64,000 bases of DNA from Escherichia coli (GCF_003018255.1 NZ_CP027440.1), one strand, 5' to 3'. Numbered from the stretch's first letter, positions 18,700-55,362 are shown. Numbers and translations are program-made. The notes: a model not told the origin generated them from the letters alone.

Positions 18700-19900
18700 A
18701 GACAAAAGCGTGGTGTCAAGGAGGGGAGGTTAACGCAGGGAAAGATTACGAAAGCCCGCTCCCAGCAAGGACTGACGCGAGATAGTTTCTGTCCATGGCT
18801 GCTTTTCGCAACTTACGTCTTAACCCTGCCTTGAATACCTTATCATTCGTCAAAATATTAATAGCGATGTGCCGTAGCCCTGAAAATAATTCTGCTGCAT
18901 TTCCTCTTCTTATTTTGCAGTCGTCTTCATTCATTACCACGTCCAGACGCCAGTGCAGCTTATTCTCCACGTGCCAGTGGTTTCGGATTGCTGTGGCGAA
19001 CTTCTCTGCGGTTAAATCAGCAGAACTGATATAATATCTGACCGTCATTTCTGGCTCTTTCTTTTGTTCTGCTATTATTGACCGAAAGGAGACTGCCACG
19101 CATAATTTCTTCAGTCCTTTCCATTCAAACGTGAAATCAATAAGTTCATCAGGGACATCGCAAACAATGTGAAGCCGGATTTCTTCTCTGCCGTGACTCT
19201 TTTCACTAATTGCGTAACTGTCATGCTCTGGATTATTTAATTCTTTCAGTGGGAATTTTTCCTCAAAGGCTTTATTAAGCCGCCCCTGATTTCCTTTTAC
19301 AGCGAATAAATAATCACCGCCCTGTTTTTGTATCTTCTCTGCAATATCTTTCTGGCAACCCATCGCATCAGTTGTGATGATTTTTCCTTTAATATCCAGC
19401 ATGTTAAGAAGTTCTGGGATAGCTGTAATCTCATTAGATTTCTCATCCGTCCTGATCTGTCCGATGACCAGACTGTGCATTGTTGAGAACGCACTAATGA
19501 CATGAATCGCTCCCCTGCGGCGACTCCTGTCATAAGAATGCCGGAGTGTTTTTCCATCGATTGCAATAACGTCTTTATCATCTGAAGTATGGCAATCTCG
19601 CATCCAGTTAATAAAGCACTCGTGAAATTTTGAAGGACTGATACAGGATACAACTCTGGCGATGGTATCGTGAACAGGAATACCATTTTCAAAATCACCA
19701 TATTGTTTTAAAAAATCGAGATGTGTTTCCCCAAAATCCTCTATATCTTCCCAGCCTTCTGCACCAGAAATAACGGCACAAATAGTCAACAGTAGAATAT
19801 CCGACAATTTATGTTCCACTTTCCAGGCTTGTCTGTAATCGGGGATAATAGAAATATGTTCCATCAATTTTTTAAGTTCCATTTTGTTCTCCTTAATTAT
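18700..19900. mobile_element. ISAs1-family (H-repeat) insertion element at the distal end of the Rhs island; boundaries approximate
   Basis: Contains an H-repeat-type transposase ORF; this family is classically found at the end of E. coli Rhs elements. Confidence 0.6.
18746..19882 (-). CDS. ISAs1-family transposase (H-repeat-associated protein)
   Basis: 378-aa [54 protein letters not shown]... typical of H-rpt/YhhI-type transposases. Confidence 0.85.
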
Positions 19901-19908
19901 GTAAGGAG

Positions 19909-20146
19909 TATTTGATCATGTATACGCAATAAAAAACAGCTTCAGGTAATGAGGAATATCTCGATTTTTAAACATAAAATGCGAATTACTTAGTACAAAA
20001 AATGTACTTCTGATGATCTTTCCCTGGTATTTGATCATGTATAAGCAATAAAAAACAGCTTCAGGTAATGAGGAATATCTCAATTTTTAAACATAAAATG
20101 CGAATTGTTTAGTACAAAAAAGCAGCGTTACGTGATCTTTCCCTGG
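19909..20146. repeat. tandem duplication, 2 x 119 bp, next to the H-repeat transposase start
   Basis: tatttgatcatgtatacgcaataaaaaacagcttcaggtaatgaggaatatctc... repeated at 19909 and 20028; copies diverge in their last third. Confidence 0.85.
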
Positions 20147-20230
20147 TGCAGGAACTGAGGAAGGAACTTTATCAGGTTAAACAGGTGGTGAAGGGAATGA
20201 AGAACGGGATATCCGGCGTATTACGCGAGG

Positions 20231-44827: not shown

Positions 44828-45259
44828 TTATGTTGGCGTTTTCTATTCAGTATAGAAGTCGGAGCGGCTGGGCGAGATGCGGAAGTTCTGGAATGTTTCT
44901 TTTTTTGATGATGGTGACTGAAGCAAATTGGCTACATTTTGCAATATGACAAGTTATGGCAGTGCGGACTGGTGGCGAAGAATTTTGACGATTGAGGCAT
45001 GCAGAATAAAACGGGTTCAGCTTCAGTTGATCAAATGAGGATTGAGAAGTCCGAAACAGGACTTACTGTATAAATAAACAGCTATTTTGCTAAGGAAGGG
45101 TAAGATAACGGCGGGTGCCTGAAGCTTTCCGGTTTCAGGTTTACTCTGAGGTCTGGAAAGATGAAGCCCCAGGAGATATTTCTATCAATCCTGGGGCTGC
45201 CACTCCAAACCCAAACAATTTGGATGGTAGTCCCTTCTTCGCATGGAGGCAATATAAAC

Positions 45260-45397
45260 ATGCTGACGAAATATGCCCTTGTGGCGGTCATGGTGCTGTG
45301 TTTAAAGGTAATTTTTATCCGGTTTATTCGGAGCAATAGTGATTGCAAGCGTATCAAGAAAATTCTTATAGAACTGAGCAATTTGTTGCCAGAATGA
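45260..45397 (+). pseudogene. hokE: hokE toxin gene remnant (Hok N-terminus intact for about 15 codons, then unrelated sequence)
   Basis: ATG 45260 encodes MLTKYALVAVMVLCL (Hok family N-terminus); after about 45304 the frame reads KVIFIRFIRSNSD..., unlike Hok; expected position downstream of ybdK. Confidence 0.5.
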
Positions 45398-46330
45398 CGA
45401 TACAACCTGATCCAGAAGTAATATAGAACGCCCGTCGCAAACTTGGGGAGTATGCAGAACATGGAATGCCTGAGAAGGATAACCACTCCAGTCAACGGCA
45501 ATGACGCACAACGTAAGGTCTCGGGGCTGAAACCGGGTAATATTATGAAAAATAGCCGGGATATCGCGGTGTAAAGCGTCATTGCCTGGCAGGCGATCGA
45601 TGGGCTTAATCTTGTTTTAACCTGAGCATTACCTGGCATATACCGTCCAATGCTGGTAAGGATGAGGGATGCGTCCCGACTAAGCGCAGCAGTGGCGTCA
45701 AGGATGGCATTCTGGCGGTACTGATGAAATGGAGTCAAATCATCACGGAAAAACTTTTGGCATGATGAGCGAACGGGCATAGAGGTGATCTCCTGAATTG
45801 TTAGCACAACCAGTCGACCACAAAACTCTATGCCCGTCTTTTTTACCCGCCTATTACTGAGGATTTCTCCGTACCATTACCGGCATTTGTTATCTTTCAT
45901 TGCTACATACGTCATCCCCCAACAAAGCAATGCTTTATAATATTATCGTAATGTCTTATTTTTTATTATTGCGATGGCTTTCTGAACATTTTATAGTGTT
46001 AGGTGTAAATCATTTATATTGATTCACGATAGGAGGATATGGACACCACACTTATTTTATGTCACTCAAGAAACACTTAAAATTCGTTGCACGTGTTATT
46101 ATTCTATTAAATAATTGCACATAATAGATTTTTTCTATTATGTAATAAAATAAAACACTATTAGATACTAGATATGCTAATGGTTTTATACTCTAAATAA
46201 TTCGAGTTACAGGTAGTGTATAAGTGAGTTCCCAAGAGCTTGCATAAGTAAGTGACTGAGGGAGCGTAAGTGCAGTACATGCAACTTGTTGCATGACAAA
46301 TATATTATCTATTAACAATAAGAGGTTATA

Positions 46331-46693
46331 ATGAAGAAATATATTTTAGTATCTCTGATGGGATTAAGTTTGAACGCATTTGCGGGTGGCAGCGGCTGGA
46401 ACCCAGACAGGGTAGACCCGAGCCGTTGTGTTATGGCGACGGGGTCAGGTCCTACCTCTGCGGGTTATATGGTATACCGAACGACTGACTCAGTGTGTAT
46501 GCAGGGTATAAATGAAGGAAAAGTGAAAGGTGTCCATATTTATGATGGGCATCATGAGTTCAATGATGGTACTGTTGACACGTTTAGCGGTAATGTTACC
46601 CCAATATCACCTTTGACATTAAAAACTGATGTTCAAAAAGTTAATAAAGTTGGCATCAAACGCTGGTGGTATAAAGCTAGCTGGATTAAATAA
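46331..46693 (+). CDS. small secreted protein, candidate cargo of the adjacent Aat-like system (dispersin/CexE-like; predicted mature N-terminus Gly-Gly-Ser-Gly)
   Basis: 120-aa ORF with RBS aagagg, signal peptide MKKYILVSLMGLSLNAFA and predicted signal peptidase I site AFA|GGSG; immediately upstream of the PABCD-like operon. Confidence 0.7.
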   Translation: MKKYILVSLMGLSLNAFAGGSGWNPDRVDPSRCVMATGSGPTSAGYMVYRTTDSVCMQGINEGKVKGVHIYDGHHEFNDGTVDTFSGNVTPISPLTLKTDVQKVNKVGIKRWWYKASWIK

Positions 46694-46732
46694 AAAATAC
46701 CTTGCCAAACGTTAATAAATAACTTAAACACA

Positions 46733-46768
46733 TCGAATGCGAATCTTTGCATTCGGTGTATTTTTTTC
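46733..46768 (+). terminator. intrinsic terminator/attenuator between cargo gene and transporter operon
   Basis: Hairpin cgaatgcgaatctttgcattcg followed by tgtattttttt. Confidence 0.65.
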
Positions 46769-46774
46769 AAAAAA

Positions 46775-47902
46775 ATGATTGTTTTTTTTTACATTAAAGA
46801 TGCTTTGCAAAATATTGCTGAAAATAAAAAGCAAATTTTCACATTTGTGATTTTTTTAACACTTAGTTTCATCGGTATAACAATTACTGATTCGTTGATT
46901 TTTAGTGTTTCAAAAAAAGCAGAAGAAGAGCTCAAAACTTATGGTGACAATGTTATTTCTATTGACATCTATAATCAAAAAAATATTAATGAGGTAATGC
47001 AAGTATTATCTCCTATATATAAATCATTATCATACTCAAAAACTTATATATTCAATGGCGGTCAAACACCTTACGATGACAAACCTTTATCAGTGACAGG
47101 TATTGATGCGCTAGGTTTATCCATAAATAAAATAACCACCAATAACATGGAATTTAATGGAGATGTTGCTATTGTTAGTGAGGATAGTCCATATTTACAC
47201 AATGGGATTGTTTTCCTTAATGGGATACCGTTTAAAATTATTGGCGTAATTCCAAAAATGAAAATGGACTTCCTGGACAGTCTTGGGTTATCGAAATATC
47301 AGAGCAACAATCAGCTCTTTGTCCCCTTAAGTACATTATTCAGATTCAAGCTAAGCAGTAATATTGACAATGTTAAGATAGTGTTAAGTGATAAAGTTGG
47401 CGAAAATGATATTAACACAACAAAAAAAACGCTTGGTGAGGAAAAAATACCAGAATACAATATTATAACAGCTCTTGATGTAAGAACCACCGTCGACAAA
47501 GTGTTGAATAGATTCTCCATATTAACAAACACTATATATATAATGTTGACATTGTTTGCTGCGGTTATATGCATTGTGTTGTGTAAACGAACATTTTCTT
47601 CCCGAAGCACAGAATTTGCACTAAAAATTATCCACGGTATAAAACAAAACTCGATAATTCTCGTTGTCATCATAGAATCAATGATTACATTAGTAATTTG
47701 TTTATTCAACTCATTGGTCGCTTCTTATTTTATTATGTTATGGATGTCTCAAATGCTATCTACAGATATTAAAATAAGAGTTGTAATGATTTCATTATCG
47801 TTAAGTGGCGTGCTGTTAATTTTTCTGTGTTCGAATATATTTTTTGGAAAATTGTTTTTCAGAATAAACCCTATATATTTAATTAAAGGTCGCCAGCAAT
47901 GA
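46775..47902 (+). CDS. ABC transporter permease, FtsX/MacB-like (AatP-like)
   Basis: 375-aa ORF: N-terminal TM helix, large extracytoplasmic domain, C-terminal cluster of TM helices; stop overlaps next gene start (ATGA). Confidence 0.75.
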   Translation: MIVFFYIKDALQNIAENKKQIFTFVIFLTLSFIGITITDSLIFSVSKKAEEELKTYGDNVISIDIYNQKNINEVMQVLSPIYKSLSYSKTYIFNGGQTPYDDKPLSVTGIDALGLSINKITTNNMEFNGDVAIVSEDSPYLHNGIVFLNGIPFKIIGVIPKMKMDFLDSLGLSKYQSNNQLFVPLSTLFRFKLSSNIDNVKIVLSDKVGENDINTTKKTLGEEKIPEYNIITALDVRTTVDKVLNRFSILTNTIYIMLTLFAAVICIVLCKRTFSSRSTEFALKIIHGIKQNSIILVVIIESMITLVICLFNSLVASYFIMLWMSQMLSTDIKIRVVMISLSLSGVLLIFLCSNIFFGKLFFRINPIYLIKGRQQ

Positions 47903-49113
47903 GATTTTTATCAAAGTCTGTTGTTCTGTTTTTTTGTGTTTATATGGTAACTCCATATGCCAAATCTCAGGAATGCATTATGGATGATTACTTCAATAAG
48001 ACTAATATTTTTTCTTCTTATATTCTGGAACAAGAGCATAATAAGAACGAAGAATCTAATAATGTTGCCTCACTTTTACCAAGTATGTCTATTGGTTTGG
48101 GGCAGTATATTAATAATAATAAGAGATTGTCTACTTTCGGGGATAGTGATATATATTTCTCTCTTTCACAGGATATATTTTCTGCATATAAATATAAAAA
48201 TAATAAAGATAAATTAGCCATCCAAAATAACCTGCAAAATTTAGAGTTGCAGAGAAAAAGATATGAGTATTTGTTGGGTTTTTACTATAGCAGCATTAAT
48301 TATACATATCAACTTGAACAAATTCAGTTAACTAAAAAACAAATCCAAAAACTAGAGACAGATTACAATATATCTAAAGAATTATTTAAGATGGGTAAAG
48401 CACCTTATCTTGACACGGAAATAAAAGGAAATAATCTAGATAAAATGAGAAATACACTTAATGAAGTGGAACTGGAAAGGCAGTATTCTCTAATGAAGAT
48501 TAAAAGTGATTATTCTGTCCCAGAAGAATTGTTGCACAAAGTAACAATTGAAGATATAAAAGCGTGTAAAAGATCAAGTATTATAGAATTAGTCAAAAAT
48601 ATTTATAAAAAAAAGAATGAGTCAGTCGATATTGATAACAAAATTAGTGAGTCATCACTCTTACCATCGTTATATTTCTCTGTAGGTTTAACTCCTAAAA
48701 ATGGTGGGACATTGAGCGATATCAGCCTTAGAGAAATGGATTATAACGCTAGTATTAGTGTGAATGTGCCGTTGAGCGATTTTTTTTCATCATTCAACAG
48801 TAAAAAAACAAATGCAATTAATTCAATGAAAAACAATATTGATAACCTTAATGATTTTAGAGAGCTTGAGTTGTTACGTTTTGATATCAATAACAAACTT
48901 CATATCATAAAGAATAAAATTCCGATTCTTAAAAATAATTTATATATAAAAAACAAAGAACTAAACTATATTTCTGAAAGAGTAAAAAATAAGAAAGAAA
49001 GTGTACTTACGTATTACTCACTACAGGATGATATTTATGAAATTGAGCTTAATATCAAAAGAAATGAAAATGAACTTATGTATTATGAACTTTATCTTGA
49101 TTTTCTTGGTTAG
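47899..49113 (+). CDS. outer-membrane efflux protein, TolC-like (AatA-like)
   Basis: 404-aa ORF with signal peptide MRFLSKSVVLFFCVYMVTPYAKSQ and coiled-coil-rich sequence; operon position. Confidence 0.6.
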   Translation: MRFLSKSVVLFFCVYMVTPYAKSQECIMDDYFNKTNIFSSYILEQEHNKNEESNNVASLLPSMSIGLGQYINNNKRLSTFGDSDIYFSLSQDIFSAYKYKNNKDKLAIQNNLQNLELQRKRYEYLLGFYYSSINYTYQLEQIQLTKKQIQKLETDYNISKELFKMGKAPYLDTEIKGNNLDKMRNTLNEVELERQYSLMKIKSDYSVPEELLHKVTIEDIKACKRSSIIELVKNIYKKKNESVDIDNKISESSLLPSLYFSVGLTPKNGGTLSDISLREMDYNASISVNVPLSDFFSSFNSKKTNAINSMKNNIDNLNDFRELELLRFDINNKLHIIKNKIPILKNNLYIKNKELNYISERVKNKKESVLTYYSLQDDIYEIELNIKRNENELMYYELYLDFLG

Positions 49114-49849
49114 TTTTTTTTCTCCACAAGCCTTTTGTGATGTTTACTATGGCGTCTTACATGGGAATAAAATCATGCATTTTAAGAGCCCATACTCTGG
49201 AATTGTGAAATTATCGGATATGGAAGAAGGCGAAATAAAACAGAACGTCACATTATTTGATGTGTTGAATTATGAGTATAATTCCAAGATTCTTTTAATT
49301 GAAAAAAAACTACAGGCTGAATGTAAAAAAAAACGTAGACTTCATAATGACTATAAAGAGAGTAAGCATTCCTATGAGTTGGGATATATATCCAAAGATG
49401 AATTACTTGACATAGAAGATAAAATAAATGATTCGAACATGGCTATTATAAATCAGAATATAGAGAGAAATAATATTACTAATATATTAAAACTTGCAAA
49501 ACCGTTGGTATCATCGCCTTTTATCATAAGGAATATTGCTGTAAGCAATGGGCAATATGTCAATTCAGGAGACGATATCGTAGATATTGAACTTCTGGAT
49601 AAGTTTTTCATTGATGTTAAAATTGATCCTGTGTCTGAACAAGGAAATATCAAAGAAAAAAAGATAAGATATCACTCTTTGGTCAATGGATTATCCGGTT
49701 TAGCATCTGTAGTCCGCATCACCCGTACCTTCGAAAATGGCCAGGATGATAAAAGTTCTGGTTTGAGGGTTGTAACATTGGCCATTGATGGTGATCATAA
49801 AAAACTCGCTGAATTACTCGATACTGCTTTTGAGATTGAAATAAAGTGA
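49064..49849 (+). CDS. periplasmic adaptor/membrane-fusion-like protein (AatB-like); start uncertain (alternatives 49001, 49037, 49070)
   Basis: ORF 49001..49849 overlaps preceding gene; N-terminal hydrophobic segment MKMNLCIMNFILIFLVSFF; stop overlaps GTG start of the ATPase gene. Confidence 0.55.
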   Translation: MKMNLCIMNFILIFLVSFFSPQAFCDVYYGVLHGNKIMHFKSPYSGIVKLSDMEEGEIKQNVTLFDVLNYEYNSKILLIEKKLQAECKKKRRLHNDYKESKHSYELGYISKDELLDIEDKINDSNMAIINQNIERNNITNILKLAKPLVSSPFIIRNIAVSNGQYVNSGDDIVDIELLDKFFIDVKIDPVSEQGNIKEKKIRYHSLVNGLSGLASVVRITRTFENGQDDKSSGLRVVTLAIDGDHKKLAELLDTAFEIEIK

Positions 49850-50475
49850 TTAAATTAGATATTTATGAAAAACAGTTCAAGGATAAAAAAATCCTTAGTT
49901 CTATATCTGTTAATGTTGAAAAAGGTTCATTTCATGTTATTACAGGGCCTTCCGGGGTCGGAAAGAGTTCACTGTTAAACATACTTGGTTTGTTGGATAG
50001 TGAATTTGATGGGAATTATGAGTTTTGTGGTAAAAATATTAATCCGAAGGATTACAATAAAACTTCTCGTATAAGGAAGGAGTATTTTGGTTTTATATTT
50101 CAAGATTCTCTCATTAATGAAAAACAAAGTGTACTACGTAACATTCTATGCTCCGTAGATTATCCTTATTTAAAATTCGCAGAGAAAAATGCGCATACCA
50201 TGCTTGAAATCGTTGGACTCCCTATGCCTGATATGAAGGTTGTGAACCTTTCAGGGGGAGAAAAACAGCGTCTTGCTCTTGCAAGAGCTTTAATAAAAAA
50301 ACCTAAAATTCTTTTGGCCGATGAACCCACCGCGAGTCTGGATAAAAATAATAAAAGGATTATTATGAATATTTTATCCGAATATAATAAAGATGGTGGA
50401 AGTGTCGTCATGGTGACACATGATCTTGAACTAATCACAAGCGACATGAGTTTAATTAAATTAGAGAACAACTAG
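49846..50475 (+). CDS. ABC transporter ATP-binding protein (AatC-like)
   Basis: 209-aa ORF with Walker A GPSGVGKSS, ABC signature LSGGEKQRLALARAL, Walker B ILLADEPTASLD. Confidence 0.85.
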   Translation: MIKLDIYEKQFKDKKILSSISVNVEKGSFHVITGPSGVGKSSLLNILGLLDSEFDGNYEFCGKNINPKDYNKTSRIRKEYFGFIFQDSLINEKQSVLRNILCSVDYPYLKFAEKNAHTMLEIVGLPMPDMKVVNLSGGEKQRLALARALIKKPKILLADEPTASLDKNNKRIIMNILSEYNKDGGSVVMVTHDLELITSDMSLIKLENN

Positions 50476-50483
50476 CCAACAAG

Positions 50484-51704
50484 ATGTTTTTGCATATTTT
50501 ATTATTTATCTTCATGCTTTGTTATTATCTGATTTCTAAAGGTAATATTAAGTTATTTTTATTTTTCGTATTAATATATTCTTTTGGCTTGTCATTTGAA
50601 ATGGTTAATGAATATTTTTTTTCGTTAACTCCAACAGTTCATTTCAATTCGATTATTTTATTATATGTTGCTTTATGTAATATCCTGATATTTACCCTAT
50701 ATTACAAGTTATCAAAGAACGGTATTTGGGGATGTGCGATATACGCCGCTGCGATTACCGCTATTTCAGCGATAAAAATATCAATCCCATTAAACCCAAT
50801 AATATTATATTATAAATACAACCTATTTATTCTACCGCAAACAAATTCTCCCTTGCTTAATCTGTATGTTATAAATTTATTACCAGCATTATTTTTTTGT
50901 TGTGATTTTAAAAAAATAATGCTGGTAATTCTATGCTATTTGGCTATGATATTACCCTGTCGCATGCTAATTTCAGATAAAATACCAAAGAGTAATATCG
51001 CTGTTATTCAAGTTGGTCTTTATTATAAAAATGGAGGGACACCTGAAAGGTTTTATAATGACATGGCGAAATTTATAAAAGAAAACAGTGTTGACCTTAT
51101 TGTTTTTTCTGAGAATGTTTACTTTGGTTATAAAAATGAAGTTATTAAAAAAAATACGGATGATTTGTTACTAAAGATTAAAACTGATTCAACACTTAAG
51201 CAAAAAGCATTTTTATTTAATTTTTTTGGATACAAAAAGTTTAATAATGTTATATCCATGTTCTTGCATGTGGATAATTCGCAATTACATCAGAAAACAG
51301 CATTAATTCCTTTTATAGAAAAAAGAGGCGTATTCAATGCTCCAGAAAAGCTTTCATCAGAATATCTAAATATCGATAAAAAAATAAAAAATAATAATAC
51401 ATTTAAGCTTCATGGCTTAAGTTATAGCATATATATATGCTATGAAGCACTGTTTCCTGAAAAATATGTACACAACGGGGTCGTAATAACACAATCTGAT
51501 TACATAAGACTTAATAACGGTAGGGGATATAAGACTACATTGGTTAACGGTAGCTTACTTGCAAAGTTTTCCGTTGCACCAAACACCAAGTTAATAAATG
51601 TCCAGAATTATGGTGGAACTATTGTTTTTAATAATGATTGGGAAATTGACTGGGATATTTATAACAAATCCAAAAAAGAACATTTTTTTGTGGTTACTTT
51701 ATAA
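50484..51704 (+). CDS. apolipoprotein N-acyltransferase (Lnt)-like membrane acyltransferase (AatD-like)
   Basis: 406-aa ORF: polytopic N-terminus plus C-terminal nitrilase/CN-hydrolase-like domain with candidate E-K-C triad contexts (LIVFSENVY, KTALIPFIEKRG, ICYEALFPE). Confidence 0.75.
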   Translation: MFLHILLFIFMLCYYLISKGNIKLFLFFVLIYSFGLSFEMVNEYFFSLTPTVHFNSIILLYVALCNILIFTLYYKLSKNGIWGCAIYAAAITAISAIKISIPLNPIILYYKYNLFILPQTNSPLLNLYVINLLPALFFCCDFKKIMLVILCYLAMILPCRMLISDKIPKSNIAVIQVGLYYKNGGTPERFYNDMAKFIKENSVDLIVFSENVYFGYKNEVIKKNTDDLLLKIKTDSTLKQKAFLFNFFGYKKFNNVISMFLHVDNSQLHQKTALIPFIEKRGVFNAPEKLSSEYLNIDKKIKNNNTFKLHGLSYSIYICYEALFPEKYVHNGVVITQSDYIRLNNGRGYKTTLVNGSLLAKFSVAPNTKLINVQNYGGTIVFNNDWEIDWDIYNKSKKEHFFVVTL

Positions 51705-51851
51705 TACAGCGAGGGAGTGTTGTTGAAATTTTTATGAGCTATTTACGCGCCCACATATTATTCAAGTCTTGCATATATATGCTGAGTAGTTAAATTCCCC
51801 TGTGCTATGCCAGTTACTCCATTCGCTTCTAAGTAGCTGATCCTAATACCG

Positions 51852-52687
51852 CTACACTTTAGCCAGCCCATGCTTTCCACCGGGGAATGGGCTGACGGTA
51901 TCCATAAAGTGACGAACCTTTTTCAACAGTTGCCACATTGAACGGCACTGGTGATTTCGGGTTATTGTTTCATGAAGCGCCTGCCACAACCGTTCGACAT
52001 GATTGACCCATGGCGAGTAAATTGGCTGATAAATCACCCTGAACTTTGGGTTTGCTTTCAGCCAGCGCAACGTTTCACAGCTTTTGTGGGTGATGTAGTT
52101 ATCGACAATGAGCGTAATCTTTTTTGCCCGTCAGTATGTCTCCTTCAGATGTTTTAACAGCCTGATAAATAAGGATGAACCTTTACTGTTTCCACCCACG
52201 TAGCTGACTTTGCCCGTACCACTGTGCAGCGCACCGGCAAGATAGTACTTTTCATTCCGGCCCGGCGTAACAACGCGCTTTTGCTGCCCGCGTAACTGCC
52301 AGTCTGCGCCGATTTTGGGATTGAGGTGGATCTCCACTTCATCTTCGTAAAACACAGGGTGTTCTATGCTACAACTGACTAACGCTACATTAATCGCTGC
52401 CATTTTTTCTTCCTTATTCGGGCCCCGGATACGCAGTGTTGGTGCTGCTCTGCGCCATACCAGTTCGGCTGCAGGTAACCATCGCCGGGAGAATGCTTAA
52501 CAAGCTCACGCAGCAATGCGCAAATATGCTCGAACGGCCAGCGCCTCTCACGTCCTGACGGCAATGACTTCAGGCCTTCAACACCCGACAGCGTGAACCA
52601 GTTAATCCAGCGACCAATCGATGAGCGAGCACAGCAGAGTGTTCTGGCAGCATGACTGACGGTGTCACCACGATGCAGCATCAGCAT
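51852..52687 (-). pseudogene. IS630-family transposase, disrupted into three reading-frame fragments
   Basis: Minus-strand ORFs 52385..52687 (HTH-like N-terminus), 52131..52403 and 51852..52070 (C-terminus ...YSPWVNHVERLWQAL...) in different frames. Confidence 0.75.
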
Positions 52688-52883
52688 GGCTGTGAGCCGC
52701 CGGGCGTGGTTTTTTGTCCTTTGTTTTATGGATCGTTTTCTGGATCAGGCGTCGTTCAGTTCTGGGTATTGGTGCTATGATCGGCACTGCTCCGTCCGGT
52801 TGGTGATTTGGGATATTCAGCGATTGATCAGATCGCATAATCGACTCTGTAACAACCTGAACGGTGTCGGGGTGGTAACATAG

Positions 52884-53045
<162 letters not shown>

Positions 53046-53130
53046 TAACGTTCTTAGCGTAAAACGGTGGTCAATATTACTTGACTACTACAAGCAATGG
53101 TTGCTGGCTAACCACAGTAAGGGTTATCCA

Positions 53131-53751
53131 TTAATCGTGTTGACAAAGCGTTATGAGTTGTTTTCCTCTTATCTGCCATTGCACAGCAAATATCTCGTTC
53201 TCCCAACAAATAATGATCCGCTGTTTATTCCAGTTCACTATCTGATAATCCAGAAAACCTTGATCTGTCTGTAACTTGCTTGCCTTAAACGCACTCTCTT
53301 TCGCTGAAAACGCCAGTGTAAGCACCACAGAAAAGGGTAAATTGCTGACCACAAGCAGCTCGTATTCTGCTGGTGTCATAATGCTGTCTTTCAACTCTTC
53401 CGCTGCTTGTGCAGAGAAGATCTCTTCGATATCAATACCCGTTGGTTGATGGGATACCACCGCTAATGCCGTAGCCTGGCAGTGACTAATACTGCCGTAT
53501 AACCCGGCAGGCCAAAGTGGCTGGCGACGTTCACCGACAGGGGGGGCGTACTTAAAGCCAAATTCCCGTAAAGCATGAACAGCAGCAATCCGTCCGGCTA
53601 AATGTTCGGCTTTGCGTTTCCGTCCGGCATGTTGCAGTTGCGCATAATGCGGCAGCCAGAGTAAATCCTGTTCGTGAAAACTTGCTGGATCGAACTCAAC
53701 AAAATGCAGCGTATGTCCGGCAAAGGGGAGGGAGGTATGCGTAGTTTTCAT
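53131..53751 (-). CDS. entD: phosphopantetheinyl transferase for enterobactin synthesis
   Basis: ORF 53131..53829; start placed at MKTTHTSLPFAGHTLHFVEFDP... giving 206 aa. Confidence 0.9.
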   Translation of the reverse strand: MKTTHTSLPFAGHTLHFVEFDPASFHEQDLLWLPHYAQLQHAGRKRKAEHLAGRIAAVHALREFGFKYAPPVGERRQPLWPAGLYGSISHCQATALAVVSHQPTGIDIEEIFSAQAAEELKDSIMTPAEYELLVVSNLPFSVVLTLAFSAKESAFKASKLQTDQGFLDYQIVNWNKQRIIICWENEIFAVQWQIRGKQLITLCQHD

Positions 53752-53780
53752 ATCGACCATATTAGAGACTGATGACAAAC

Positions 53781-53872
53781 GCAAAACTGCCTGATGCGCT
53801 ACGCTTATCAGGCCTACACTATCCTGCAATATATTGAATTGGCAAGATTTTTGTAGGCCGGATAAGGCGTTC
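53781..53872. repeat. REP palindromic units between entD and fepA; the last unit is interrupted by the IS
   Basis: gcctgatgcgctacgcttatcaggcctac ... gtaggccggataaggcgttc ends at the IS left end; the matching gccgcatccggc half is found at 55312-55323 after the IS right end. Confidence 0.75.
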
Positions 53873-54780
<908 letters not shown>

Positions 54781-55362
54781 TCCAGGAGATGCTCCTGCAT
54801 GGCTTTCAGATATGCATTTTCTGCGCGAAGATAACGCAGCTCATTCTTCATCTCTTCCGGCGTCATGTTTGCCTCGTTTTCATGGGTATCATCAGAACGG
54901 GTCATGCTTTTCTCCTTCCTGCGCCTGATAAAGGCCTCATTACCAGATTTGCGGTAGCCTTTTATCCAGTTTTTAACCATGTTGTGGCTGGGAATGTTAA
55001 ACCGGGCAGCTACCCGGGGTAGAGACTCAGAATGCCCGAGAGCATAAAGAACCACGCAAAGTTTATCTTCAGGAGAATAGCTACGCTTGTGTCTGCAATC
55101 CAGTGCCCGAGGACCGTGAAGAAGAAAAAGATTAATCCAGTGTGAGAGGCTGGTGTGAGAAAGTTGAAAGAGTTTTGCCGTAGAAATGATGCCTGCATGA
55201 CCAGCCAGGTAATGATTTACAGCGGCAAGTTTTACTTCAAATGAATGTTTCATAAACTGCACCTTCAGATGTCAGATTATGTCCAACATTTGGGGTGCAG
55301 TTCAGTTTCACGCCGCATCCGGCATGAATTACGCGCACTTTGTCAACAATCTGACGTTAGCA

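Follow-up and report, generated by a model that had tools for sequence, protein, structure and literature searches.

Enteroaggregative E. coli (EAEC) carries Aap and AatPABCD on pAA (042, 55989, O104:H4), with the same six components and the same aatPABCD order as the locus described here, which lies in a 64-kb stretch of E. coli DNA analysed as a whole (the window). The CexE and Aat (CexPABCD) proteins of ETEC H10407 are encoded on plasmid p948 and are CfaD/Rns-regulated. In ETEC, cleavage by signal peptidase I leaves a glycine at the N-terminus, which AatD then N-palmitoylates; secretion is Aat-dependent (PMC7943197). C. rodentium, likened here from published descriptions, is another species whose Aat system is chromosomal; its cargo belongs to the dispersin clade, and the AraC-like RegA is in control (PMC7478709, PMC7344145). 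A further likeness is to Lnt with LolCDE and to MacAB-TolC: AatD has the Lnt fold and catalytic residues, AatC resembles the LolD/MacB ATPases, and AatP is an FtsX/MacB-type permease. However, the Aat substrate has an N-terminal glycine and is without a lipobox cysteine; at 406 aa, AatD falls about 100 residues short of Lnt (about 510 aa) and is only 12–16% identical to it in structural alignments; and the Aat route leads through a TolC-like channel to the cell surface, whereas the LolCDE route ends at LolB.

The preliminary description of the locus had regarded these systems as plasmid-borne, which is too narrow, since chromosomal Aat loci were reported earlier in C. rodentium and on "chromosomal pathogenicity islands". 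Chromosomal islands and a cargo gene directly upstream were already noted by Icke et al. (2021), whose operon census lists this chromosomal locus by its aatP gene (KTE75, N11-1317). Their supplementary data place WP_001561605.1, a sequence identical to the window's cargo, in the CexE/Aap homologue set, so the suggestion that the cargo might be new does not hold. Because it is already in the published census, the locus is a known Aat system, ordinary rather than new.

The six genes and their relatives

The six genes and their assigned products are as follows:

46331..46693, + strand: cargo gene, dispersin (Aap/CexE family), 120 aa (BLASTP, PDB, Pfam)
46775..47902, + strand: aatP, MacB/LolCE-type (FtsX-family) ABC permease, 375 aa
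47899..49113, + strand: aatA, TolC-family outer-membrane channel, 404 aa, N-terminal signal peptide
49037..49849, + strand: aatB, periplasmic adaptor (HlyD/MFP-like), about 270 aa, start uncertain
49846..50475, + strand: aatC, ABC ATPase of the LolD/MacB/FtsE class, 209 aa
50484..51704, + strand: aatD, polytopic Lnt-like N-acyltransferase, 406 aa (BLASTP, TIGR00546, AF2)

As the preliminary description had it, all six ORFs are co-directional and intact, and both stop/start overlaps are real (ATGA at 47899–47902 and GTGA at 49846–49849, 4 nt each). Its likening of gene set and order to Aat/Cex was borne out by near full-length BLASTP matches to EAEC and H10407 (E from 1e-40 to 1e-128), and tblastn likewise paired the six proteins one to one with Aat/Aap counterparts in unchanged order. 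Its other readings, of a secreted cargo related to Aap/CexE, of Walker A/B and signature motifs in the ATPase and, for the 406-aa protein, of E/K/C contexts like those of Lnt, are upheld by the results below. The five downstream genes are, on sequence, aatP, aatA, aatB, aatC, and aatD. Identity to EAEC is 48% for AatP (E = 8e-120), 35% for AatA over residues 14–403 (E = 5e-74), 48% for AatB (E = 1e-82), 62% for AatC (E = 7e-89), and 38% for AatD (E = 4e-87). H10407, by analogy the same system with the same chemistry, is more distant (35, 28, 32, 56, and 34% for P, A, B, C, and D, respectively), and its aatD lies apart from aatPABC, whereas the genes are contiguous in the window.

The arrangement of EAEC recurs in the ATGA overlap of aatA with the aatP stop and in the long overlap of aatB with the 3' end of aatA, which spans 77 nt in the window as against 101 nt in EAEC. 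The start of aatB has three candidates, namely GTG 49001 (longest ORF), ATG 49037, which is favoured by the EAEC alignment beginning at ORF residue 13, and ATG 49085 (PGAP). AatA and AatB have weak matches to TIGR01844 and TIGR01730 (RND_mfp), respectively, while the NCBIfam matches of AatC include LolD (2e-44) and FtsE (1.5e-45). AatC contains Walker A GPSGVGKS (34), the signature LSGGE (135), Walker B ILLADEP (155), and in addition an H-loop, THD (191).

AatD matches the TIGR00546 lnt profile (E = 3.5e-9) and Pfam CN_hydrolase (E = 0.0016). Its residues E210, K271, E279, and C319 align to E217, K278, E286, and C325 of H10407, are identical to the catalytic residues of EAEC AatD, and are invariant across 33 homologues; alanine substitution of those H10407 residues abolishes CexE acylation (mutagenesis). 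The proposed comparison of a predicted structure with Lnt was run, and the AF2 model (pLDDT 91.6, pTM 0.90) has the Lnt fold, its top 22 matches in the PDB all being Lnt structures aligned over the full length.

The 120-aa protein is assigned as a dispersin/Aap homologue, being 45% identical to Aap of EAEC 55989 (E = 1e-34) and 76% to the cargo of pSTEC299_1; its residues 19–119 match residues 1–94 of the "dispersin" chain of PDB 2JVU (E = 3.3e-23), and Pfam PF28204 (Dispersin) is a precomputed match. No BLASTP match to CexE of H10407 was found at E <= 1e-3. Residues 1–18, ending in NAFA, form a predicted type I signal peptide and leave a predicted mature N-terminus of GGSGWNPD…; for WP_001561605.1, SignalP gave Sec/SPI 0.975 with cleavage AFA-GG at 18–19 (Icke et al., 2021, supplementary file 28). 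The junction NAFA-GGSGWN, both cysteines (positions 33 and 56), and the C-terminal region are alike in dispersin, from which the window's cargo differs by a 6-residue insertion (SGPTSAG).

The closest relative is a sister variant on plasmids (pSTEC299_1, pToe17-2, pAST46/pDLI.5a, and an O170:H18 plasmid), with about 79% nucleotide and 70–83% protein identity (79% for AatP of pSTEC299_1). It shares the six-gene layout, the cargo immediately upstream, and the inter-gene hairpin. On pToe17-2, the module lies beside EAEC-type shf-capU-virK-lpxM genes, and pDLI.5a carries on the same replicon a CfaD/AggR-class regulator 40% identical to CfaD. Compared with the pSTEC299_1 variant, dN/dS is 0.12–0.22 in all six genes, with dS of 0.7–1.1.

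Insertion site, upstream region and hairpin

The locus occupies a 7.8-kb, low-GC, IS-flanked islet with hokE truncated and entD adjoining, the chromosomal site that had been named from the sequence; the EAEC genes are on pAA. Besides the genes, the islet has these features:

45310..45810, − strand: IS4/IS5-family transposase remnant at the left end (PGAP and junction mapping)
45811..46330, + strand: AT-rich region upstream of the cargo gene, not common to the plasmid variants
46178..46306, no strand: short dispersed repeat of about 125 bp, ERIC/IRU-like imperfect palindrome
46730..46767, + strand: intrinsic-terminator/attenuator hairpin between the cargo gene and aatP (terminator scan)
51828..52842, − strand: IS630-family transposase remnant, frameshifted, on the right side (megablast and PGAP)

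Against the island-free strain JNE070796, the blastn match stops at 45309, and entD homology restarts at 53123, which sets the right boundary at about 53122. The junction 45309/45310 cuts hokE after about 17 codons, and core ybdK-hokE DNA, found in 5410 of 5426 genomes, ends at about 45305–45310 of the window (query about 485–492). In DETEC-S792, PGAP labels the left remnant "IS4/IS5 family transposase, frameshifted"; the right one is labelled "IS630 family transposase, frameshifted; internal stop", and IS630 copies match it at query positions 124–1138 (megablast). GC content is 27–35% over 46.5–51.5 kb vs about 50% in the flanks; the block was therefore horizontally acquired and is not a chance set of ORFs. 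The survey of the site that had been proposed found the islet in only three of 5,426 complete E. coli genomes. A cargo protein of identical sequence occurs on 792 contigs (1593 index blocks); the ten long contigs examined all have it at one and the same site, and the locus is thus stably inherited.

Megablast homology to the plasmid variants starts only at 46318–46329. The dispersed repeat, which stops 25 nt short of the cargo ATG, holds internal inverted repeats and has unannotated copies, 73–79% identical, in 244 PLSDB records of Salmonella, Escherichia, Klebsiella, and Yersinia, with at most four copies per record; its core, GCTTGCATAAGTAAGTGACTG, occurs once in the window. Judged by the consensus, it may be an ERIC element. 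A scan for the AggR-type layout (WWWWWWWTATC, then a −10 element 21–23 bp on) gave no match upstream of the cargo gene or aatP vs one in each of four positive controls, and, unlike the window, pSTEC299_1 has this layout upstream of its cargo. The sole sigma-70-like match upstream of the cargo gene is at 45969–45997 (9 of 12), and such matches in this region are no more numerous than in shuffled sequence. In EAEC, the cargo gene is several kb away from aatP, near aggR, whereas here it lies 81 bp upstream of aatP, with no aggR or aar nearby.

The hairpin in that interval (46730–46759) has a 13-bp stem, a 4-nt loop, and then a U7 tail; its RNA fold of −17.4 kcal/mol has z = −5.8, and none of 200 shuffles folds as well. 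Its stem is kept in pSTEC299_1 and pToe17-2 through changes from A-U to G-C and from U-G to C-G or U-A (alignment read by eye). As the hairpin separates the two, the cargo gene would form its own or an attenuated transcription unit before the coupled aatPABCD. Given this strong hairpin and U-tract, the cargo is probably transcribed well above the transporter genes.

Regulation and integrity of the chromosomal copy

AggR, CfaD, and Aar homologues are absent throughout the 64 kb, in agreement with the initial remark that no regulator gene was visible. The chromosomal copy is uncoupled from the AraC-class activator found with its relatives on plasmids, and other DNA has taken the place of its upstream region. 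AT-rich islands are commonly silenced by H-NS unless an activator is present, and with none in 64 kb, the locus could therefore be silent.

It is conceivable, though rather doubtful, that the locus still belongs to an AraC-class virulence regulon with the activator supplied in trans from a plasmid. A regulator of the AggR/VirF class is plasmid-borne in some carrier strains, and others are without one. The candidate is an unannotated AggR/CfaD/VirF-class protein of pJNE23-011-type plasmids (269 aa, at 48731–49540 in pJNE23-011). Over 258 aa, it is 31–32% identical to AggR (E = 1e-36) and CfaD (E = 5e-41), and its identity to VirF is 36%. The same plasmid occurs in JNE112863, giving two of the three locus-bearing complete genomes vs 18 of 5423 others, and the chromosomal cexE/aat genes of C. 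rodentium under the AraC-like RegA offer a precedent (PMC7344145). However, the JNE23-011 and JNE112863 plasmids are near-identical and amount to a single observation; DETEC-S792 is without the regulator (it is outside the 20 megablast records genome-wide, and none is encoded on its plasmid pDETEC43); in 18 genomes, the regulator occurs without this aat locus; and the exact regulator allele is found in 36 index blocks vs 1593 for the cargo. A correctly spaced AggR-type site was likewise not found upstream of the cargo gene or aatP, although a divergent regulator may prefer other sites. Plasmids of the pJNE23-011 type also bear a CFA/III-like cof type IVb pilus and a T6SS.

The start of aatP bears on whether the locus is decaying. 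A T9 tract (46782–46790) directly after the start codon is polymorphic, with T9 in the window and four relatives and T8 in six of the 11 related loci, and the T8 allele shifts the conserved ATG out of frame. The ATGATT start is kept in both plasmid variants aligned (pSTEC299_1 and pToe17-2), in which the T-run differs in being interrupted. Among AatP annotations, the T8-derived 365-aa form is on 261 contigs vs 174 for the 375-aa form. No obvious Shine-Dalgarno sequence was seen on inspection at ATG 46775 or the alternative GTG 46756.

It is unlikely that the locus is a cryptic, decaying remnant that transposed off a virulence plasmid without its activator and is silent and becoming a pseudogene in this lineage. 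The degraded IS4-family and IS630 copies on the flanks, the replaced upstream region without activator or AggR-type promoter, the T8 allele, and frameshifts in aatA (L008, L012), aatB (L008), and aatD (L014) would fit such a history. Against it, the window has the six ORFs all intact, as do four of the 11 related loci (L001, L007, L010, and L011, of which L001 and L011 are one DETEC-S792 chromosome), and four more (L009, L013, L015, and L016) deviate solely in the T8 tract. Some of the frameshifts come from long-read assemblies, in which homopolymer errors could account for them. Within the chromosomal lineage, pN/pS is about 0.27 and not about 1, on small counts (15 synonymous and 16 non-synonymous changes), and the stable inheritance of an identical cargo on 792 contigs also speaks against decay.

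Reading of the locus

A generic MacB/TolC-type efflux or peptide-export pump beside unrelated secreted and nitrilase-like proteins is highly improbable and effectively refuted by the Aat BLASTP matches, the Lnt structures, and the dispersin 2JVU match. Taken singly, the permease, outer-membrane, and adaptor proteins have only weak NCBIfam matches of a generic kind (E = 3e-3 to 3e-4), and the ATPase's best is a bacteriocin-export family. However, the six Aat/Aap matches are specific and near full-length with order kept, the small secreted protein is a dispersin, and the acyltransferase shows both the catalytic residues and the shortened Lnt architecture peculiar to AatD. The six-gene module also recurs on plasmids, where it is 79% identical in nucleotide sequence and has been kept by purifying selection.

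The islet at hokE-entD thus very probably carries an Aat-type secretion system, complete and intact, along with the dispersin-family protein that is its substrate. By homology to the dissected EAEC and ETEC systems (PMC7943197, PMC7478709), Sec would export the 120-aa precursor, and signal peptidase I would cleave after Ala18 (AFA-GG), exposing Gly19. AatD, as an Lnt-like enzyme of the inner membrane whose Glu-Lys-Cys triad is joined by a stabilising Glu, would load a phospholipid acyl chain on Cys319 and pass it to the alpha-amino group of Gly19. The LolCDE/MacB-like AatP-AatC ABC transporter would then pull the acylated protein out of the inner membrane and hand it to the adaptor AatB, from which it would leave by the TolC-like channel AatA to end as a lipid-anchored coat protein at the cell surface.

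An Aat locus with a dispersin-like cargo

The reading of this locus as an Aat secretion system, comprising AatPABCD and a substrate of the Aap/CexE type, is supported. The six co-directional genes claimed in the preliminary description are all present as open reading frames (ORFs), each of them intact in the window, as follows.

Open reading frames of the chromosomal aat locus (46331-51704)
46331-46693, + strand, cargo gene (dispersin homologue), ORF of 120 aa
46775-47902, + strand, aatP, ORF of 375 aa
47899-49113, + strand, aatA, ORF of 404 aa
start ambiguous, stop at 49849, + strand, aatB, ORF
49846-50475, + strand, aatC, ORF of 209 aa
50484-51704, + strand, aatD, ORF of 406 aa

The stop/start overlaps described earlier are also found, each 4 nt long: ATGA at 47899-47902 (aatP/aatA) and GTGA at 49846-49849. 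Three starts can be considered for aatB, namely, GTG 49001, which gives the longest ORF; ATG 49037, which best fits the AatB of enteroaggregative E. coli (EAEC); and 49085, the choice of PGAP. The cargo gene and aatPABCD are separated by a strong hairpin that ends in a U7 tail (46730-46767), with a fold energy of -17.4 kcal/mol (z = -5.8). The GC content across the block is 27-35%, whereas it is approximately 50% on both sides.

The loci on pAA of EAEC 55989 and p948 of ETEC H10407 served as references for the comparison of the six proteins. As had been proposed from the gene set and its order, the five proteins encoded after the cargo gene are near full-length matches to EAEC AatPABCD in the same order. 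AatP, a MacB/LolCE-like ABC permease, has 48% identity to EAEC 55989 AatP over 369 of 375 aa (BLASTP, E = 8e-120) and 35% to that of H10407. AatA, encoded directly after aatP and matching the TolC family weakly, has 35% identity to EAEC AatA over 390 aa (E = 5e-74) and 28% to H10407, while the periplasmic adaptor AatB, with a weak RND_mfp match, has 48% over 271 aa (E = 1e-82) and 32%, respectively (BLASTP for both). AatC is an ABC ATPase of the LolD/MacB class (LolD match at E = 2e-44) with 62% identity to EAEC AatC and 56% to H10407 in BLASTP; beyond the Walker motifs noted at first, Walker A, signature, Walker B, and H-loop are all present. The identity of AatD is 38% to EAEC and 34% to H10407 (BLASTP), and a tblastn search of 72,556 plasmids with the 406-aa AatD returned 163 records, nearly all from E. 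coli and many annotated aatD.

In diarrhoeagenic E. coli, both dispersin and CexE act as colonisation factors and are used as diagnostic markers. A comparison of the cargo with Aap had been proposed, and the cargo has 45% identity to this dispersin (E = 1e-34). The mature cargo matches the dispersin structure PDB 2JVU (phmmer, E = 3.3e-23), residues 19-119 aligning to 2JVU 1-94, from the first mature residue (GGSGW…) to the end; both Cys are conserved, and the cargo differs from 2JVU by a 6-residue insertion. The signal-peptide junction reads …SLNAFA/GGSGW, and the first Cys is residue 33. The cargo sequence thus has the features of an Aat substrate: a signal peptidase I (SPI) site, an N-terminal Gly, first five residues rich in Gly/Ser, and no lipobox Cys. 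For the identical protein WP_001561605.1, SignalP gave Sec/SPI at 0.975 with cleavage at AFA-GG (Icke et al., 2021, supplementary file 28).

A precomputed match of the cargo to Pfam PF28204 'Dispersin' in the gene-call collection conflicts with a Pfam-A profile scan, which gave no match even at E ≤ 10; the Pfam-A copy scanned may predate PF28204, explaining the missing match, and the conflict is settled by the match to the PDB dispersin. In nearly all of hundreds of RefSeq/GenBank records, the cargo is labelled 'hypothetical protein', and one partial copy is labelled 'dispersin Aap'.

The acyltransferase AatD and the proposed route of the cargo

Apart from Aat, no bacterial pathway is known in which a glycine is N-acylated and the lipoprotein so formed is then exported to the cell surface. 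The AatD of H10407 requires E217, K278, E286, and C325 (Icke et al., 2021). Their counterparts here, as aligned with MAFFT, are E210, K271, E279, and C319, so the catalytic residues of the type found in apolipoprotein N-acyltransferase (Lnt) that had been read in the sequence are confirmed. All four are invariant in the 33-sequence family alignment. AatD (ACYLTRANSFERASE, 406 aa) matches the NCBIfam lnt model TIGR00546 with 36.3 bits (E = 3.5e-9), a score far below the equivalog cut-off of 132.9 bits, and Pfam CN_hydrolase matches it weakly.

Lnt was not found when the PDB was searched by sequence, whether the query was AatD itself or a profile of five AatD sequences; a match to dCMP hydroxymethylase (E = 0.007) in the PDB sequence search was dismissed as spurious. 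From the 33-sequence alignment, AlphaFold2 gave a confident model (mean pLDDT 91.6, pTM 0.90) that bore out the supposed likeness to Lnt, as the top 22 Foldseek matches in the PDB are Lnt of E. coli and P. aeruginosa, with TM-scores of 0.56-0.65. Among the PDB searches with AatD, Lnt was reached by this fold search alone. The Lnt structures align over the whole model, whereas the next-ranked matches, soluble enzymes of the nitrilase superfamily, cover the C-terminal domain only. From the Foldseek matches and the catalytic residues, together with an lnt score below the cut-off, it follows that AatD has the fold and catalytic apparatus of Lnt and is a member of the AatD branch, not an Lnt orthologue. 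Its public labels vary among 'apolipoprotein acyltransferase', 'carbon-nitrogen hydrolase family protein', and 'hypothetical protein', and in many cases the annotated start is truncated.

By homology to other Aat systems (PMC7943197 and PMC7478709), the cargo precursor would be exported by Sec and cut by signal peptidase I at AFA/GG, and AatD would then N-acylate Gly19 via an acyl-Cys319 intermediate. AatP and AatC are predicted to pull the acylated cargo out of the inner membrane, from where it would pass through AatB and AatA and end displayed on the cell surface.

Insertion site, distribution, and earlier records

The placement of the locus at a chromosomal hokE-entD site was upheld: core DNA ends at approximately 45309 within hokE, and homology to the island-free relative JNE070796 resumes at 53123, at entD. 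The islet in between is 7.8 kb long; besides the six genes and the AT-rich 520 bp upstream of them, it contains an IS4-family transposase and an IS630, both degraded. It cuts hokE after approximately 17 codons at 45309; the sok antisense RNA gene is intact at 45113-45268 (Rfam RF01794, 85.7 bits). The core ybdK-hokE DNA occurs in 5410 of 5426 complete E. coli genomes. The survey of E. coli suggested for this locus found it in three of the same 5426 (JNE23-011, JNE112863, and DETEC-S792), always on the chromosome and at 99.8% identity, while a sister variant at approximately 79% identity is carried by five plasmids. A larger assembly collection has the identical cargo protein on 792 contigs (1593 index blocks), and in each of the 10 long contigs that were inspected, it lies at this ybdK-entD site.

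Several further observations were made around the site and its relatives. JNE070796 carries a tandem pair of hokE genes at this position. The entD gene (53123-53872) has only 83.6% identity to that of JNE070796, against approximately 98% for the DNA flanking the islet/IS region, which suggests that entD either was replaced by recombination along with the islet or is an exceptionally divergent allele. On the - strand, 53810-53851 matches the Rfam sRNA ES036 (CssrF) with 44.4 bits (gathering score 37.6), overlapping entD at its 5' end. An IS3-family element at 53873-55306, between entD and fepA, is absent from JNE070796 and from one of the related chromosomal loci (L010), and the fepA next to it is annotated as frameshifted in DETEC-S792. 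On the plasmid pToe17-2 (6818-10715 and 17026-22382), the 79%-identity variant lies beside an EAEC-type shf-capU-virK-lpxM.

Homologues of AatD were described in E. coli, Shigella boydii, Yersinia, Enterobacter, and C. rodentium, chromosomal in the last (Belmont-Monroy et al., 2020), and 826 complete systems were collected from EPEC, STEC, Shigella, Salmonella, and other organisms (Icke et al., 2021). The suggestion that the cargo may be new did not survive, as the protein stands verbatim as WP_001561605.1 in the homologue, alignment, and SignalP files of Icke et al. (2021). The aatP position table of the same study places WP_001561606.1 on KB732775.1 (strain KTE75) and MPGQ01000001.1 (N11-1317), which are the loci L015 and L013 of the present analysis, both retrieved here with their ybdK-entD context. 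Because the cargo and the aatP contigs are in those data, the locus has already been catalogued as an Aat system; it is of a known kind, and novelty is not supported. In the Aat literature consulted, the locus is never singled out, and neither its insertion site nor the missing linked regulator is mentioned.

Regulation and the T tract at the aatP start

The lack of a visible regulator gene in the window was corroborated, since tblastn of AggR, CfaD, Aar, and the H10407 ANR protein against the 64 kb gave nothing better than E = 0.17. The AggR-promoter rule places a -10 element 21-23 bp after WWWWWWWTATC (Yasir et al., 2018). A scan with this rule found one site upstream of each of four positive controls (EAEC aap, EAEC aatP, H10407 cexE, and the cargo gene of the plasmid pSTEC299_1) and, in the window, none upstream of either the cargo gene or aatP. 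Bare WWWWWWWTATC motifs at 45937 and 46299 were rejected as AggR sites, neither having a suitably spaced -10; that at 46299 also ends 22 nt before the cargo ATG, which counts against a functional site. Nucleotide homology to the plasmid variants starts only at the cargo ATG, indicating that the region upstream has been replaced. Just upstream of this ATG, at 46178-46306, is an imperfect-palindromic dispersed enterobacterial repeat of approximately 125 bp; copies with 73-79% identity to it, none of them annotated, occur in 244 PLSDB records from several enterobacterial genera. From its resemblance to that consensus, it is a putative ERIC/IRU-like element.

Among the plasmid relatives, pDLI.5a has kept an activator, whereas the chromosomal module is separated from it. 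This regulator (19361-20173) has 40% identity to CfaD, lies approximately 11 kb from the aat variant, and is annotated merely as 'helix-turn-helix transcriptional regulator'. In carriers of the chromosomal locus, a candidate is found on the approximately 98-kb plasmid pJNE23-011 (NZ_AP045068.1), which also has a CFA/III-like cof type IVb pilus operon (cofR, cofS), a T6SS, and lpxR: an ORF at 48731-49540 encodes a 269-aa full-length AraC regulator of the AggR/CfaD/VirF class (31-36% identity), annotated 'hypothetical protein'. CofS of the same plasmid was rejected as activator; its likeness to AggR/CfaD is mainly in the C-terminal HTH region, and the neighbouring full-length AggR-class ORF is therefore preferred. 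The candidate plasmid is present in two of the three complete carrier genomes, JNE23-011 and JNE112863; DETEC-S792 is without this regulator, and its plasmid pDETEC43, checked in full, has no AraC-class regulator. This regulator is on plasmids of 20 complete genomes, among them the milk-outbreak strain ESC818 and strain 16F5M1D1 (O8:H8), and in public data its exact allele is approximately 40 times less frequent than the cargo. Plasmids, dispersin, and regulators are not mentioned in the paper on the OgGp9:H18 outbreak (ESC818, a carrier of the regulator plasmid).

Against the pSTEC299_1 variant, dN/dS is 0.12-0.22 at dS 0.7-1.1 for all six genes, and pN/pS within the chromosomal lineage is approximately 0.27, from small counts. 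Related chromosomal loci carry frameshifts in aatA (L008 and L012, -2 nt), aatB (L008, -1 nt), and aatD (L014, -2 nt), which could be real decay or homopolymer errors of long-read assemblies. An internal lesion that would break aatP in six relatives was rejected, as the difference is a T tract of variable length beside the start codon, at 46782-46790 directly after the aatP ATG (46775). The tract is T9 in the window, in DETEC-S792 (L001 and L011), and in the related loci L007 and L014; it is T8 in L008, L009, L012, L013, L015, and L016, and is interrupted in L010. The ATGATT start of aatP is kept in both plasmid variants, where the T run is interrupted, and T9 is therefore the in-frame state, with the conserved start out of frame in T8. 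For T8 alleles, annotators then choose either a GTG start, giving 381 aa, or a TTG start, giving 365 aa. The T9 and T8 states are both common: in public assemblies, 174 contigs have the 375-aa AatP and 261 have that of 365 aa. The tract could be a slipped-strand on/off switch or a sign of early decay.

A reading in which the chromosomal copy no longer belongs to the AraC-class virulence regulon and has another form of control, for example by the replaced upstream region with its ERIC-like repeat or by T8/T9 slippage at the aatP start, we consider improbable. If it were true, the slippage would switch the transporter, and hence the display of the dispersin-like coat, on and off within the lineage, and this would be a phase-variable Aat system in E. 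coli that are otherwise neither EAEC nor ETEC.

The practical value of these results is modest and lies in better annotation, the cargo still being a 'hypothetical protein' in RefSeq. For the study of Aat expression, the chromosomal locus is a natural test case of control without AggR, Rns, or RegA in cis. In E. coli, this divergent dispersin/Aat module is a stable chromosomal resident of a minor lineage, which includes Japanese clinical isolates (the JNE strains) whose plasmid carries the cof type IVb pilus operon and the T6SS.
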